The position numbers and the translations under genes are program-made. 59,876 nucleotides of DNA from Planctomycetota bacterium (GTDB taxonomy: Bacteria; Planctomycetota; UBA8108; UBA1146), in contig PAIH01000024.1 of NCBI GenBank assembly GCA_002711105.1, positions 1-59,876 on the forward strand. The letters are read 5' to 3'. Within the stretch, counting starts at the first letter, position 1; the number at the start of each line of letters is the position of its first letter. This document shows, piece after piece, positions 358 through 59,876 of the stretch. Under the pieces are notes generated by a model. The model ran no database searches, had not been told where the DNA came from, and saw only the letters and a list, made by a program, of their open reading frames with translations.

Positions 358-1320
358 TCAGCGCGAGCAGAAGCCACGGTGCTTCTGATAATAGTCCTGG
401 TGGTATTCCTCGGCGCGCCAGAAGGTCGGGGCCTGGGTGATGATCTGGGTGCAGAAGTCACGCCCATCGAAGGCATTTTCTTCCTTCATTTGCTGCATCA
501 CCTGCTCGACCTGTTCGGCTTCGTCTGCATCGTTGCAGAAGATCACCGATCGATACTGACTGCCGACATTGGGACCTTGCTGATCGGGGGTAGTCGGATC
601 GTGCAGGGCAAAGAACAGCTGAACCAGATCGCGGTATCGGAGTTGCCGTGGATCGTAGAGCAGTTCCACCACCTCGGCATGACCGGTCTCCCCGGAGCAG
701 ACCTGCTCGTAGGTGGGATTGTCGTGGTGACCTCCCATGTAGCCGGAGACGGCATCGACGACGCCATCGAGGCTCGCAAAGCGATCCTCCACGCCCCAGA
801 ATCAGCCGCCACCGAACCAGGCGCGAGCCAGTTTCGGGTCCGAGTCCCGATCATCCAGTTCGGGAATCTCGCGCGCAATCGCCTGGCCCTCCGGATAGAA
901 ATGCAAGGATGCCGAGTTGAGGCAGTGGCGGGTTCCGGTCGGGGGAGGCCCGTCGGGGAAGGCGTGACCGAGATGGGCATCACAGCGGCCACAGGTGATC
1001 TCGATGCGCACCATGCCATGGCTCTCATCGTGCTTCTGGCAAACGTGCTGCGGGTCGAAGGTGTCGAAGAAGGAGGGCCACCCGGTACCGGAATCGAACT
1101 TGTGTTCGGAGCGAAACAACGGCAGGTGACAGACAACACAGGCGTATACCCCATCAGATTTCTCCGCCAGATTGCCGCCGCAGAAAGGAGCTTCCGTTGC
1201 TGATTTCTGGGTCACCTGGTGCTGCTCTGGAGAAAGACGCCGGGTCAGTTGTTGATGATGCAGCGGTTCCGGAGCCACGAGCGGAAAGCCGCTGGCCGAG
1301 ATTTCAGGTCCGGAAGCCAT
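358..1320 (-). CDS. msrBA: fused methionine sulfoxide reductase MsrB-MsrA. An in-frame TGA (802-804) at the MsrA catalytic position is predicted to encode selenocysteine.
   Basis: Track ORFs 802..1440 and 358..792 share one frame and are separated only by TGA. The N-terminal half carries MsrB motifs ([30 protein letters not shown]). The C-terminal half is MsrA (FWGVEDRF...GYMGG...[18 protein letters not shown]...GSQYRS). The junction reads GGG-TGA-FWGVE, matching the conserved GCFWGVE. The ATG at 1320 (MASGPEIS...) is the preferred start; an upstream ATG at 1440 is also possible. Confidence 0.8.
748..789 (-). promoter_or_regulatory. candidate bacterial SECIS region (two adjacent mRNA hairpins downstream of the UGA)
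   Basis: Hairpin 1 (789..769) is GAGG-A-UCGC-UUU-GCGA-G-CCUC and starts 12 nt after the UGA. Hairpin 2 (768..748) is GAUGGCGUC-GUC-GAUGCCGUC, a 9-bp stem including 2 G-U pairs. Both were folded by eye only. Confidence 0.3.
802..804 (-). other. in-frame UGA codon, predicted Sec codon of MsrA
   Basis: Minus-strand codons read GGT GGC GGC TGA TTC TGG GGC GTG GAG (G G G * F W G V E). The TGA occupies the Cys position of the GCFWG active-site motif. Confidence 0.75.
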
Positions 1321-56208: not shown

Positions 56209-57396
56209 TCATCTGTCATAGAGTGGTAGATATCCCAGTGGCAATTCTAGTATCAGGAGCGCCATCGCTGTTCCGTATTCATCTCCAAAACGACTCTCCC
56301 ACGAGCCCTCATCCTTCTGCAACTCCAGAACACGTGGCCACACCGATTCACTCCATCGCTTCCAGATAGCTCCCCGCGATTGCTGAAGAACCTGACCGGC
56401 GTAAAAGTTACCGTAGTAAGGGAAATTCGTGGCCGCCCTGAAGGCACTCTTGCGACTCCGCTCGGCTTTTTCGATGGACCGTCGCAAGTACTCCATCCCT
56501 TTCTGTCGCTCCTCCAACGCATATTCCCCGGCAGAATCCATGGTCGAGAGAGAAGCGGCTGTAATTTCGAAGGAGGTTCGGTTTGTAGATCTCGTCAGGG
56601 AGTAGCGAAACGAACCGTCATCGGTGCAACACTTCTTCAGGTAGCCCACTGCCCTGGCAATCGGTTCCGCAGGTACTGCGAATCCTGAATCTTTTGCGGC
56701 TCTCAGGGACTGCAAGCAACACACTGTCAGAGATGCCTCATCGAGCGGGTCAGTCGGCTCGTACCCCCAACCTCCCTGGTTCGTCTGGCAGGAGAGGATC
56801 AGATCGATCCCGGAACGAATCACCTTCCTCAATTGATCTTCGCGTTGCGGCGTCGGTAACTGCCCCACCACTTGAGAGAGGAACAGGATGGCATAGGTGT
56901 GCCCATGCATCCTGGAACGAGTCTCACCTCGATCCTTGAGGTATCCACGCTCATCGGACCTGACAGGAGAGATCAGGTAATCGACTGCTCTCTCCAGAGC
57001 AGCACCTTCTTTTCCAACGCCATACTCCACTCCGCCGCCCAGTAGCGCCATCCCCGAAAGGGATGTCACTGCCACCGGGAATGAACTGGAGAAAGCTCCA
57101 ACACCATTCTGCTGTTCTACGAGGAAGCTGATACCACGCTGGATGGCGAGTTCACTGCGGGAATCATGAGGAGCCCCAAGGGCAACCGTCTGAGCACTCT
57201 TGCCCGACCGCTGCTCGTCATCGAACAAGGGCGAATGGGAGCAGAGGGAAGCCAAACAGAGCGCCGGAAAAAGGAACACGAATCCCCACAAAGCCAATGG
57301 CATACCGACTCGTGCCCAGCACGATGACGATACCGACCTACTCGGAGGTTCCTCGGGCGGCGATTCTATAGGTTCAGGGTGAGCGTCATCATTCAA
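56209..57396 (-). CDS. prenyltransferase/squalene-oxidase-repeat (alpha/alpha-toroid) protein, secreted
   Basis: Repeated QxxxGxW-type motifs (QQNGVGAF, QTNQGGWGYEP, TDDGSFRY, KDEGSWESRFG). The TTG at 57396 overlaps the upstream TGA. An alternative ATG at 57303 (MPLALWGFVFLFPALCLA) gives a cleaner signal peptide. Confidence 0.6.
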   Translation of the reverse strand: MNDDAHPEPIESPPEEPPSRSVSSSCWARVGMPLALWGFVFLFPALCLASLCSHSPLFDDEQRSGKSAQTVALGAPHDSRSELAIQRGISFLVEQQNGVGAFSSSFPVAVTSLSGMALLGGGVEYGVGKEGAALERAVDYLISPVRSDERGYLKDRGETRSRMHGHTYAILFLSQVVGQLPTPQREDQLRKVIRSGIDLILSCQTNQGGWGYEPTDPLDEASLTVCCLQSLRAAKDSGFAVPAEPIARAVGYLKKCCTDDGSFRYSLTRSTNRTSFEITAASLSTMDSAGEYALEERQKGMEYLRRSIEKAERSRKSAFRAATNFPYYGNFYAGQVLQQSRGAIWKRWSESVWPRVLELQKDEGSWESRFGDEYGTAMALLILELPLGYLPLYDR

Positions 57397-57791
57397 CGTG
57401 GGGATTGCTCCGGTAGTTTGCGGAAGTAGTCCTCAAGTAATATGCGGTACTTCTCTGGCAATTTACGGCGCCCGTTATCGTACATTCGCTGAATCACGGT
57501 CTTCGGTAGCCGCCCCCAACGCCCTCTTCCCTGCTGATCACGCAGATCTCCGACCTTCTCATCCGGTAGCTCTCCGTCAGCAGTGCGGTCATTGCGTACC
57601 TGGTCGGAACCGTCGGGATTCTTGGCAGACTCTGGCTTGCCCTTGGCCTGGGATGACGAGTCCTTCTGCTGACCCTTGTCTTCCTGGGAACGACTCTGAC
57701 GTTGGCCACTGGCCTGCTCCTGATCACGACCCGAAGTACCTTGCTGTCGTGCTTGCTGAGGATTCCCCGACGGGGAACCACCACCATTGGG
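57393..57791 (-). CDS. start-less 132-codon continuation of the upstream ORF beyond an in-frame TGA (Q/S/G-rich region plus a conserved-looking basic C-terminal tail)
   Basis: Not in the ORF track. Hand translation of the same frame as 57792..58325 gives PNGGGSPSGNPQQARQQGTSGRDQEQASGQRQSRSQEDKGQQKDSSSQAKGKPESAKNPDGSDQVRNDRTADGELPDEKVGDLRDQQGRGRWGRLPKTVIQRMYDNGRRKLPEKYRILLEDYFRKLPEQSPR*. There is no ATG/GTG/TTG until codon 99. Confidence 0.45.
   Translation of the reverse strand, partial: PNGGGSPSGNPQQARQQGTSGRDQEQASGQRQSRSQEDKGQQKDSSSQAKGKPESAKNPDGSDQVRNDRTADGELPDEKVGDLRDQQGRGRWGRLPKTVIQRMYDNGRRKLPEKYRILLEDYFRKLPEQSPR
57761..57779 (-). promoter_or_regulatory. GC-rich mRNA hairpin 12 nt downstream of the in-frame UGA at 57792-57794
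   Basis: GGUUCCCC-GUC-GGGGAAUC: an 8-bp stem (one G-U pair) with a 3-nt loop, or a 7-bp stem with a CGUCG loop. No U-tract follows it. Confidence 0.4.
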
Positions 57792-58211
57792 TCACGTCCC
57801 GGTGAGTCTCTGAACTTCAGTGATGAGCTCGTCGATACGACTGAGCGTTTGCTGCTGAACTGACTGGTTCTGTTCTCCCGTGTCATCATCGTCGAGTAGC
57901 TCTTCGATCTCCTTCATGTTGCGAGAGATCTCATCGATCAAGCCTTCCACTTTTCCGAGCGGATTGGCTGTATCGAGAATATCGAGCGGATCCACATCGA
58001 TGGGGTTATCGTCGAGCAACCGCTTGAGAGGATCCTCTTCATCATCGTCTGGAGCATCTATTGCCGGCTGATCAGGAGTGTCCGCTCCGATCTCCGGTGA
58101 TCCTGGTCGGACATCCGGTCGGATACCTTCGAGGTCAGCTTCCTGAGCCTGGGCCGGTATGCACAGCACCCACAGCAGGAGCAAAGAAATCTGAACGATA
58201 GCGATTCGCAT
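57792..58211 (-). CDS. secreted acidic protein, hypothetical (ends at a TGA that is in frame with 57393..57791)
   Basis: Start at ATG 58211, with signal peptide MRIAIVQISLLLLWVLCIPAQA. The rest is D/E-rich (DAPDDDEEDPLKRLLDDNPIDVDPLDILD). Confidence 0.55.
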   Translation of the reverse strand: MRIAIVQISLLLLWVLCIPAQAQEADLEGIRPDVRPGSPEIGADTPDQPAIDAPDDDEEDPLKRLLDDNPIDVDPLDILDTANPLGKVEGLIDEISRNMKEIEELLDDDDTGEQNQSVQQQTLSRIDELITEVQRLTGT

Positions 58212-58362: not shown

Positions 58363-59876
58363 TCACCCTCCCCCCTCTCCGTCCTTATCGGGTCCAGAAT
58401 CACCGGGATCTGGGCCTTCCGGAGCCTCATTAACCGTCGGAGGTTGCATCTGACGCTGGAGATCGGAAGCAATTTGTTCGGTAAGCTCGATGATGCTTCC
58501 CTGGCGCTGGACCAGTCGCTCCAGCAGCCTCTCCTCCAGAGGATTGAGTTCCTCGCCTTCTTCACGTCGCTCATCGAGACGACGAGTACGGCGCAGGACT
58601 TCCTCCTGCATCCGTTTCAGGGCCAGCAACTCAGCCGCTGGAGGGACCAGCTGGGTCTGCGCTGCCTGCTGCTGTTGTTGCTGCTGTTGCTGCTGCTGTT
58701 GCTGCTGTTGCTGTTGATTTCTTCTCCTCAATTCCTCCTCGAGAGAATCTCGCAACCTGCGCAACGAATCGAGGGCCTCAGAAAGAAGTAGTTGGGTATC
58801 GAGTCCCGGATCATTCCTCGGACTCAAACCCTCGCGAGCTTCGGCAAGATCGGCCAGAAGATCACGAATGATGTAGGAGAAAACCCGGACTTTTTGCGCA
58901 TCGAGCGCTTCCAAAACCTCGTTGCCCGAGTCCTCGACATCGGAAACTTGACCGGAGAGACGGCGCATCCGGGCACGTTGCGCCCGTCCCGGACGCCCGT
59001 CACCCACTGTCTCTGCGATGGTACGGGTCTCCGACAGAATTGAATCGATCTGGTCCGACATGTCGGTGATGGTTCCGATGAGATCGATCAGTTGCTGCTC
59101 CACCTTGAGATCAGCGAGTTCCCGTTCTTCCTCTTGCAGTCGCTGTTGCTCCTGCTCGAGTTGTTCCAGCGCTTCATCTTGTTGCTGACGTGCAGACGAA
59201 GCATCTCCGCGTTCCAGGCTTTCGGAGGCCCGATCCATACTTTCGGAGGCACCCTGTAGTCCTTCCGCAGCGGAAGGATCTTCCTCGGCGAACTCCTCGG
59301 CTCTATTTCTCGTTAATCTCTCCAGTTCATCTTGTTCGCCGGAGAGCTCGGGAGTGGCTTCCTGTTGACGCTTCAATCGCTCCAGAGCATCTTCGTCCGA
59401 TCCCTGAAGGGCCTCTTCTGCTCTTTCCAGAGCGGTCTCGGCAGCTTGCTGAGCAGACTCTGCCGCTTGACCACCACTCATCTGTTCAGCAGCGCTCTCC
59501 ATTGCGGAGCGAGCACTGCGCAAAGCTCGACGAGCGTCCCCCACCTTTTTACGAAGTTTCTCATCTTCCTCGGGAGACAGACTCTGCTGGCCCTTGGAAA
59601 GTTTCTTTTCCAGCCGGTCCAGTTCTTCCTCCAGTTCGCGTGTCAACTCGGCAAGGCGTTGCTGACGATTGGAGGGGCGATTCTCATCGGATCGCTCGGC
59701 TAGCGAGGAGAGACTTTCTGCAGCCTCCTGTGCTCGTTCGGCAGCCTCCTGAACCTGTTCGATTCGTTCCCTTTCCGACGACGCAGAAGATTCCTCGCCC
59801 TGCTCACCGGACTGTTGACCGGACTGCTCGCCAGACTGCTGGCCGGACTGCTGGCCAGACTGCTGGCCGGACTGCT
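58363..59876 (-). CDS. large Q/E-rich coiled-coil protein, hypothetical (5' end outside the window)
   Basis: The frame stays open upstream of the track TTG start (59646) all the way to the window edge (...QSGQQSGQQSGEQSGQQSGEQGEESSASSERERIEQVQEAAERAQEAAESLSSLAERSDENRPSNRQQRLAELTRELEEE...). It has heptad-like E/Q/L/R composition and a 17-Gln run. Confidence 0.6.
   Translation of the reverse strand, partial: QSGQQSGQQSGQQSGEQSGQQSGEQGEESSASSERERIEQVQEAAERAQEAAESLSSLAERSDENRPSNRQQRLAELTRELEEELDRLEKKLSKGQQSLSPEEDEKLRKKVGDARRALRSARSAMESAAEQMSGGQAAESAQQAAETALERAEEALQGSDEDALERLKRQQEATPELSGEQDELERLTRNRAEEFAEEDPSAAEGLQGASESMDRASESLERGDASSARQQQDEALEQLEQEQQRLQEEERELADLKVEQQLIDLIGTITDMSDQIDSILSETRTIAETVGDGRPGRAQRARMRRLSGQVSDVEDSGNEVLEALDAQKVRVFSYIIRDLLADLAEAREGLSPRNDPGLDTQLLLSEALDSLRRLRDSLEEELRRRNQQQQQQQQQQQQQQQQQAAQTQLVPPAAELLALKRMQEEVLRRTRRLDERREEGEELNPLEERLLERLVQRQGSIIELTEQIASDLQRQMQPPTVNEAPEGPDPGDSGPDKDGEGGG
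58666..58716 (-). repeat. CAG/CAA trinucleotide tract encoding 17 consecutive Gln
   Basis: Counted codon by codon on the minus strand: caa cag caa cag cag caa cag cag cag caa cag cag caa caa cag cag cag. Confidence 0.9.
59809..59876 (-). repeat. 12-nt tandem coding repeat (at least 5.7 copies, truncated by the window edge) encoding (SGQQ)n
   Basis: Plus-strand units are ggactgttgacc / ggactgctcgcc / agactgctggcc / ggactgctggcc / agactgctggcc / ggactgct. Confidence 0.85.

Follow-up and report, generated by a model that had tools for sequence, protein, structure and literature searches.

The stretch of DNA analysed here (the window) comprises positions 1 to 59,876 of contig PAIH01000024.1 from the Planctomycetota assembly GCA_002711105.1, and carries near its end, on the minus strand of the contig at 57393-58211, a gene whose reading frame contains an internal TGA codon at 57792-57794. 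It is highly likely that this TGA is a selenocysteine (Sec, or U) codon, translated by SelB with the aid of a selenocysteine insertion sequence (SECIS) element inside the coding region, and that the gene encodes a 272-residue exported protein, the Sec-containing form of a family found in Planctomycetota. An earlier note, made from the letters of this DNA alone, had listed four options for the TGA, namely Sec insertion, programmed readthrough, a recently disrupted gene and a sequencing error; the evidence favours the first of these. Residue numbers below count Sec as 140, and the gene is laid out as follows.

57393..58211, minus strand: full putative selenoprotein coding sequence, 272 residues including Sec140, plus the terminal TGA; a single frame, with colinear orthologues and a low ratio of nonsynonymous to synonymous substitution rates (dN/dS) either side of the internal TGA
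57792..57794, minus strand: in-frame UGA, probably read as Sec (U140), ten residues past an invariant LI and kept in all 19 orthologues and corresponding, in an anchored alignment with other lineages, to the second Cys of the family CxxC
57393..57396, minus strand: true stop, sharing bases with the TTG at which the downstream toroid gene begins

Direct translation gives one frame of 272 sense positions, from the ATG at 58209-58211 to the terminal TGA at 57393-57395, with a single internal TGA at residue 140 in the context ...ELITEVQRLTGT-TGA-PNGGGS..., such that the predicted sequence across the junction is LTGT-U-PNGGGSPSGNPQQAR. A purine tract, AGGAAAGAGAG, precedes the ATG, and the MR start is kept within the genus. 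The internal TGA is separated from the real stop by 132 codons, the first ATG, GTG or TTG past it is the 99th codon, and the terminal TGA shares bases with the TTG start (57394-57396) of the next gene, in the sequence cacgTTGAatg.

The gene was sought in 40 related genomes, and in its own, through a six-frame search that read through stops, and was found in 39 of these 41. The source organisms are uncultured marine Planctomycetota, represented by metagenome-assembled genomes (MAGs), the UBA1146 lineage among them. Firstly, the 19 orthologues from genera g1, g5 and g7, which share 55-75% identity, each have one internal stop, which is always TGA, and after correction for strand orientation the TGA column is identical in 19/19. 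Secondly, these orthologues are colinear over residues 1-272, and length differences past the TGA are all of whole codons. The local contexts are ...LTGT*PNGGGS, ...LTGS*QNGGGS, ...LSGG*SSGGGS and ...LGGG*SSGSGS, where the asterisk is the TGA. Thirdly, pairwise dN/dS past the TGA is 0.10-0.25, with dS of 1.0-1.9, a constraint at least as strong as that on the part before it, meaning this stretch is coding. Fourthly, distant homologues, in which Cys or Ser takes the place of the TGA, are uninterrupted proteins of 250-300 amino acids (aa) that cover both halves, and no part of the family is more strongly conserved than GRGRWGRLPKTVIQRMYDNGRRKLPEKYRILLEDYFRKLP, which falls past the TGA.

The layout that the earlier note had read from the letters is therefore borne out. 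The two pieces belong to one gene, given the 19/19 orthologues, the frame-preserving indels and the purifying selection; the 132-codon open continuation and the overlap of its stop with the next start are both as described; and the count of 98 start-less codons after the TGA is exact, such that the downstream piece is no independent gene. The N-terminus, MRIAIVQISLLLLWVLCIPAQA followed by QE, has the form of the signal peptide ascribed to the upstream open reading frame, while the Q/S/G-rich low-complexity region and the basic tail beyond it are recognisable as a linker at residues 141-228 and a basic module, respectively.

The downstream hairpin and the decoding machinery

The published model of the bacterial SECIS (bSECIS) specifies an apical loop of 3-9 nucleotides (nt) with G in the first two loop positions (usually a G followed by G or U), an upper stem of 4-16 base pairs (bp), a UGA-to-loop distance of 16-37 nt, and a minimum free energy (MFE) of -7.5 kcal/mol or lower (PMC13188914, Fig. 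2A). The SECIS prediction that the earlier note had proposed as a check returned a hairpin passing all of these criteria in 19/19 orthologues, with the loop GUC in each, at 17-20 nt, and energies of -9.0 to -18.7 kcal/mol. In the window it consists of two parts, of which the lower stem is conserved less than the core.

57761..57779, minus strand: putative SECIS core, an 8-bp stem GGUUCCCC/GGGGAAUC with apical loop GUC, starting 12 nt past the UGA, with the loop at 20 nt
57754..57786, minus strand: extended putative SECIS helix, with lower stems of 3 bp and 2 bp flanking the core, MFE -16.1 kcal/mol

The stem appears to be maintained as a structure. Pairing is found in 92% of cells across the orthologue hairpins, versus 45-69% when the partner strand is slid. 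Compensatory changes include the replacement of CCCC/GGGG by CCCA/UGGG, and of U-A by C-G; two pairs have changed on both sides (C-G to A-U, and G-C to A-U), and there are many switches between G-C and G-U, and between U-A and C-G. Covariation in the stem is modest but real. The more distant TGA-bearing members of the family also have hairpins, with loops including GGUC, GGUCA, GUU and GUA, at 16-25 nt, although the residues encoded there differ.

Such hairpins could in principle arise as a by-product of encoding a G/S-rich peptide, which made the Cys- and Ser-form genes an informative control, as they also encode G/S-rich sequence at the same positions. A qualifying hairpin follows 23/23 TGAs of the family, versus 2/8 Cys- or Ser-form genes. 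Hence the hairpin tracks the TGA, not the peptide, and the by-product explanation was rejected. The same contrast between presence and absence is evident in sister pairs, both that of G027 (U) with G025 (CxxC), and that of the U10 clade with G008 (Cys). Among random genomic TGAs, any qualifying hairpin occurs in 17%, and 0/242 reach -16 kcal/mol. A search of the region against Rfam at a permissive E-value found just a chance match to a long non-coding RNA, and no matching model; to our knowledge, bacterial SECIS elements are essentially absent from this database.

The genome (G000) also encodes the components needed to translate such a codon. The genes selA, selD and selC adjoin one another on contig C40 (46929-49350), outside the window, with selB elsewhere.

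C40:46929-48023: SelA
C40:48158-49081: SelD, with one in-frame TGA
C40:49257-49350: tRNA-SeC, anticodon TCA, 67.9 bits
C48:94760-96649: SelB, 380 bits against a cut-off of 242

Across the related genomes, all those bearing the TGA have both SelA and a tRNA-Sec match of at least 62 bits, while in G008, where the orthologue is of the Cys form and lacks the hairpin, SelA is missing and tRNA-Sec matches do not exceed about 49 bits; this genome is 82% complete.

Two other genes of this genome contain in-frame TGAs. That of SelD is at C40:48188 (...SCSG-U-ASK...), and 26 nt beyond it comes the GGUCG loop of an 8-bp stem. That of MsrA, at window positions 802-804 on the minus strand, lies in the sequence GGG-U-FWG and precedes a hairpin of 9 bp closed by a GUC triloop. 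At about 42 nt from the UGA, this loop falls beyond the published bSECIS range of 16-37 nt (PMC13188914). A GUC motif is common to the hairpins of the present gene, SelD (loop GGUCG) and MsrA (GUC triloop).

Cysteine and probable selenocysteine at a conserved helix end

The identity of the residue replaced by the TGA emerges from comparison with the wider family. A plain MAFFT alignment placed the Cys of homologues two to three columns away from U, owing to the low complexity of the region, and was replaced by an ungapped comparison anchored on the invariant ...ID.LI motif, in which positions are counted from LI. The states found were as follows.

U at LI+10: the clade of the present gene, and G027
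C at LI+7 and LI+10 (CxxC): G025, G039
U at LI+7: G013b, G026, with the same ...KT-U-PS... reading in G006b, G029 and G028
C at LI+7: G007, P0006, P0009, P0010, P0011
U at LI+7 with C at LI+12: G026
C at LI+7 with C at LI+12: P0009
U at LI+7 with U at LI+13 (two TGAs): paralogues in G006 and G013

Each Sec arrangement bar the last aligns with a Cys counterpart. The U+10 of the present gene and of G027 aligns with the C+10 of the CxxC forms in G025 and G039; the U+7 of G013b and G026 aligns with the C+7 of G007, P0006, P0009, P0010 and P0011; and the U+7/C+12 of G026 aligns with the C+7/C+12 of P0009. The orthologue alignment that the earlier note had called for thus finds the TGA column kept within the clade, and Cys in its place in other lineages once anchored on LI. 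As judged from these sequences, the family motif is CxxC at a conserved helix end, with the TGA replacing the second Cys in this lineage. Here LI+7 is occupied by Thr or Ser, or in two g7 genomes by Gly, giving mostly TxxU or SxxU, and residue 140 is the sole Cys-type residue of the mature protein.

A maximum-likelihood tree of the family places the 19 U+10 sequences in a single clade (support 100/99), the sister of which is a Cys/Ser clade, while G027 (U+10) pairs directly with G025 (C+7, C+10). The Sec state requires at least four changes on this tree. Repeated exchanges of Sec and Cys at fixed positions are a known pattern of redox-active sites.

A profile search of 1.84 billion cluster representatives extended this comparison, identifying 1,248 family members at E<=1e-3, of which the top ~149 representatives were classified. 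Among these, 15 have CxxC exactly at LI+7/LI+10; in about 23 more the Cys residues are arranged differently, most of these sequences having one at or adjoining the two positions; 70 have no Cys at either; and 25 are gene calls that end early, all of them just before LI+7 (11) or LI+10 (14). The nearest database entries likewise end at the TGA. Contig-end truncation would not fix the ends at LI+7 and LI+10, hence these 25 calls are best understood as Sec forms that gene finders have ended prematurely at the UGA. Public gene calls therefore lose the most conserved part of the protein, and dozens of representatives would be put right by a model admitting U at LI+7 and LI+10. The variants with one Sec, with Sec and Cys, and with two Sec constitute a natural series for the study of Sec/Cys exchange.

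The two-TGA arrangement occurs in second paralogues of the family, L022 (G006:C18:78983-80600) and L023 (G013:C111:28287-29865), in which the two in-frame TGAs are six codons apart in the sequence ...NKT-U-PSGGV-U-PKTGR.... The hairpin following the first UGA encloses the second, which has its own 8-bp stem with a GUU loop. Both G006 and G013 also keep a Ser-form paralogue of the family.

Two of the long database sequences merit comment. In P0107, a metagenomic protein of 1,486 aa with no Pfam domains, the family module forms the C-terminal ~210 residues and lacks Cys, which suggests that the module can fuse to a large low-complexity envelope protein. By contrast, P0055 (6,400 aa), matched in 16 stretches, has the look of a repeat protein unrelated to the family, and was set aside. 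Two clear members, L045 (QNYK01000064.1) and L065 (JAFMMO010000060.1), are in records titled 'Bacillota bacterium' and 'Proteobacteria bacterium', respectively; the contig of L045 was placed in the window's own taxonomic family as G015, and the taxonomic labels of both MAGs are probably wrong.

Alternative readings of the TGA

Three other explanations were weighed against Sec insertion. The one that fares best is programmed UGA readthrough independent of Sec, in which the hairpin would stimulate near-cognate insertion of Trp, Cys or Arg at position 140. This would be expected to leave the same conserved frame and downstream RNA structure, yet it is improbable, as the hairpin fits the SelB-type bSECIS (a G followed by U in the loop, 17-20 nt from the UGA) and resembles the SelD loop of the same genome; the position of the TGA is Cys in homologues; TGA forms are confined to genomes with Sec machinery; and the hairpin strictly co-occurs with the TGA. 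Neither do we know of efficient, conserved non-Sec UGA readthrough as an established mechanism for bacterial chromosomal genes, which counts further against this explanation.

Slightly less probable again is that the gene specifies two products, with a 139-residue secreted protein ending at the TGA, and the downstream stretch translated by re-initiation or from a non-canonical start. The first of these products is exactly that annotated by public gene callers, and some truncated protein is probably made in any case. For the second, there is no ATG, GTG or TTG in the 98 codons past the TGA from which to begin, and no signal peptide of its own, though the family is exported; nor would this explain why the downstream part has stayed in the same frame across 19 genomes despite indels, or why the homologues are single uninterrupted proteins.

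The third explanation takes in three possibilities: a nonsense mutation that has recently inactivated the gene, a mistake in assembly or sequencing, and reassignment of TGA throughout the genome. A single window could not exclude these, but they can now be dismissed almost entirely. The same TGA is present in 19 independently assembled genomes of three genera, and the sequence past it is under strong purifying selection; the gene is therefore not a pseudogene, the TGA is not a sequencing error and the tail is not non-coding, which removes two of the earlier note's four options. TGAs also occur at equivalent Cys positions in other families. Reassignment is ruled out by TGA being the commonest stop in the genome, closing 712/1,239 long stop-to-stop frames as well as this gene itself.

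Some observations weigh against Sec insertion. The TGA form in G029 has the same hairpin architecture with an added bulge, and fails the strict bSECIS criteria. The double-sided changes that make up the clearest covariation are each found in a single distinct sequence, and the hairpin overlaps conserved codons. The absence of SelA from G008 could stem from the incompleteness of that genome. Additionally, the Sec adjoins a low-complexity linker predicted to be disordered, with no recognisable oxidoreductase fold, in a structural model of low overall confidence (described below). The earlier note had for similar reasons called the case atypical for Sec; its description of the context as low-complexity stands, whereas its objection that no Cys is nearby is resolved by the family CxxC, with the TGA at the second position of this motif.

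SelB/SECIS-directed Sec insertion is nevertheless well supported by these comparisons of sequence. The SECIS hairpin, with its 8-bp stem and GUC loop 20 nt past the UGA, would recruit SelB with Sec-tRNA(Sec), such that a fraction of ribosomes would insert Sec and read on for 132 codons to the real stop. Sec decoding is inefficient in bacteria, hence a 139-residue product lacking the C-terminal module is probably also made, in a ratio that would depend on selenium supply.

Architecture, genomic setting and possible function

The full-length product would comprise a signal peptide, an acidic stretch, a helical hairpin with TxxU at its end, a G/S/Q-rich linker and a basic C-terminal module.

58146..58211, minus strand: predicted signal peptide of the Sec secretion type, MRIAIVQISLLLLWVLCIPAQA, with the cleavage site inferred after AQA, based on the sequence, a model helix at residues 2-16 and hydrophobic N-termini family-wide
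57804..57962, minus strand: conserved hairpin of two helices (residues 84-136) that closes with the invariant ...IDELI..., with AlphaFold (AF2) helices H84-107 and H113-136
57528..57791, minus strand: G/S/Q-rich low-complexity linker, residues 141-228, predicted from model confidence to be mostly disordered, within the constrained region past the TGA
57411..57530, minus strand: near-invariant basic C-terminal module GRGRWGRLPKTVIQRMYDNGRRKLPEKYRILLEDYFRKLP, from the alignment and model helices

An AF2 model built from an 18-sequence alignment has an overall predicted local distance difference test score (pLDDT) of 55.8 and a predicted template modelling score (pTM) of 0.18. Confidence is higher in helices H84-107 and H113-136 (pLDDT about 70-85), where residues 91-130 include invariant columns, and falls below 50 at residues 138-161 and 180-229, with further helices modelled at 239-245 and 253-265. 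The basic module has about 30 invariant columns over the 18 sequences, at 36-74% identity. The model thus suggests the order of signal helix, disordered acidic stretch, hairpin 84-136, Sec140, disordered linker and C-terminal helices 239-265, with Sec140 four residues beyond the helix end.

Known domains offer little by way of a name for this protein. Pfam searches of both halves, of the joined protein and of 18 family members found nothing meaningful, and no NCBIfam model matched at E<=1. A profile search of the PDB returned only de novo designed antiparallel coiled coils, reflecting compositional similarity. There was no thioredoxin-type domain among the Pfam results, and the protein does not belong with the thioredoxin-fold oxidoreductases on this basis.

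The gene occupies ninth place in a series of co-directional genes extending past the window, in the order MoxR (AAA_3), DUF58, BatA_N/VWA, VWA, a PQQ-like propeller, a terpene-cyclase-like toroid, DUF4175, a 977-aa DUF4175-like coiled-coil protein, the putative selenoprotein gene and a second toroid. Its immediate neighbours are the following.

56209..57396, minus strand: downstream partner, an exported terpene-cyclase/prenyltransferase-like alpha/alpha-toroid of 395 aa (Pfam SQHop_cyclase_C 4.7e-7, TED_complement 7.4e-5)
58363..59876, minus strand: upstream partner, a DUF4175-like coiled-coil protein of 977 aa, rich in Q and E, of which the window contains the 3' part and which continues to contig position 61296 (Pfam DUF4175)

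Both flanking genes are conserved in 20/20 loci, and at many orthologue loci the start of the downstream gene coincides or overlaps with the terminal stop of the full frame, rather than with the internal TGA. A distant Ser-form member, P0007, is 41% identical and keeps the same downstream neighbours. The adjacent DUF4175 (PF13779) envelope proteins resemble this family in being exported and having similar Q/E/S-rich low complexity. Unlike them, no family member matches the PF13779 profile, and BLASTP shows no similarity to the upstream neighbour, such that an origin as a duplicated or split-off piece of that gene was rejected.

This arrangement shares with the Bat (Bacteroides aerotolerance) clusters the co-directional genes for MoxR AAA_3, DUF58, BatA_N/VWA and VWA proteins. 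Hence the gene is a component of a Bat-type MoxR-VWA cluster by context, not by homology. The planctomycete cluster differs in adding a beta-propeller, two toroids, two DUF4175-type coiled-coil proteins and the present protein. The Bat proteins have been proposed to form a periplasmic complex that reduces oxidised periplasmic proteins or exports reducing power (PMC3557215). In the literature, no Sec- or CxxC-bearing subunit was found reported in Bat clusters, and searches found no description of this family, or of a selenoprotein in Bat, MoxR or DUF4175 clusters.

In its decoding, the gene resembles other bacterial selenoproteins, of which E. coli fdhF is the prototype, and SelD and an MsrB-MsrA fusion are examples from its own genome. 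These have an in-frame UGA with a small-loop G-U stem-loop within ~20 nt, and the resemblance extends to the presence of SelA, SelB, SelD and tRNA-Sec in the genome, to Cys homologues and to truncation by gene finders. It is unlike the known examples in having no Pfam or NCBIfam model, and in the position of its Sec at a helix end beside a low-complexity linker. A recent catalogue (Zhang et al. 2026, PMC13188914, Table 1) lists 119 prokaryotic selenoprotein families and subfamilies and assigns a domain model to each. None of the 119 matches, as judged by comparing Pfam and NCBIfam results with the models in that table; the catalogued families defined by cd or PTHR models only (TlpA, Prx-like, CopZ, BtuF and an Fe-S oxidoreductase) have folds that Pfam would detect. 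This is very probably a real, uncatalogued family of exported selenoproteins, combining an ordinary bacterial decoding mechanism with an unusual structural and genomic setting. As such, it represents a new, well-supported addition to the prokaryotic selenoproteome, from the poorly charted uncultured marine Planctomycetota.

The motif itself has clearer parallels. The same catalogue includes Sec motifs derived from CxxC, namely UxxC, CxxU, TxxU (as in Sec-peroxiredoxin) and UxxxxU (as in TsoB) (PMC13188914), to which the TxxU/SxxU, U-x4-C, U-x5-U and single-Cys forms of this family are comparable. For an exported protein, a Sec motif descended from CxxC points to redox chemistry. The site may be redox-active through a selenylsulfide or disulfide, made either with a partner or, in the CxxC, U..C and U..U forms, within the molecule, or it may alternatively bind metal. 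Set against this, and unlike thioredoxin-like CxxC proteins, the family has no oxidoreductase fold, and its motif follows a coiled-coil-like hairpin. Furthermore, Cys and Sec are both missing from these positions in about half of the family representatives; hence the site is not essential to the core function of the family, which weakens the case for a redox role. The protein seems to exist for the sake of a structural core, to which the Sec/Cys site looks like an addition.

By its position, the protein might supply a redox-active or redox-sensing element to a Bat-type periplasmic complex. A more elaborate proposal, which is tentative and on balance unlikely, is that the Sec/CxxC site belongs to a redox-active, or redox- or selenium-sensing, subunit of a Bat-type MoxR-VWA-DUF4175 complex, with the UGA acting as a selenium switch. 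With selenium, the full-length protein including the basic module would be made, whereas without it only the 139-residue hairpin fragment would result, tying assembly or activity of the complex to selenium or redox state. Leptospira bat mutants showed no oxidative-stress phenotype, and the function of Bat systems has been described as elusive (PMC3557215), points that weigh against a redox role. Were this switch real, it would provide the first concrete chemical handle on the function of Bat-type clusters; irrespective of the switch, the fixed place of the family in the MoxR-DUF58-BatA-VWA-DUF4175 cluster offers a testable redox lead for such systems.

Several minor features of the cluster were also evident. 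Translations of several of its open reading frames on contig C25:59877-74000 (L037) contain X, which denotes assembly bases that are ambiguous or masked; examples are found in the DUF58 region and close to the ends of the DUF4175 protein of 727 aa. The upstream DUF4175-like gene contains a run of ~17 Gln codons at window positions 58666-58716 on the minus strand, and its orthologues have similar poly-Q or poly-L-frame tracts. The toroid paralogues, at window positions 56209-57396 and contig C25:63475-64614, are both exported, both have a weak match to the A-macroglobulin TED, and both end in ...ILE(L/I)P..YLP(L/I)(Y/F)(D/E)R.

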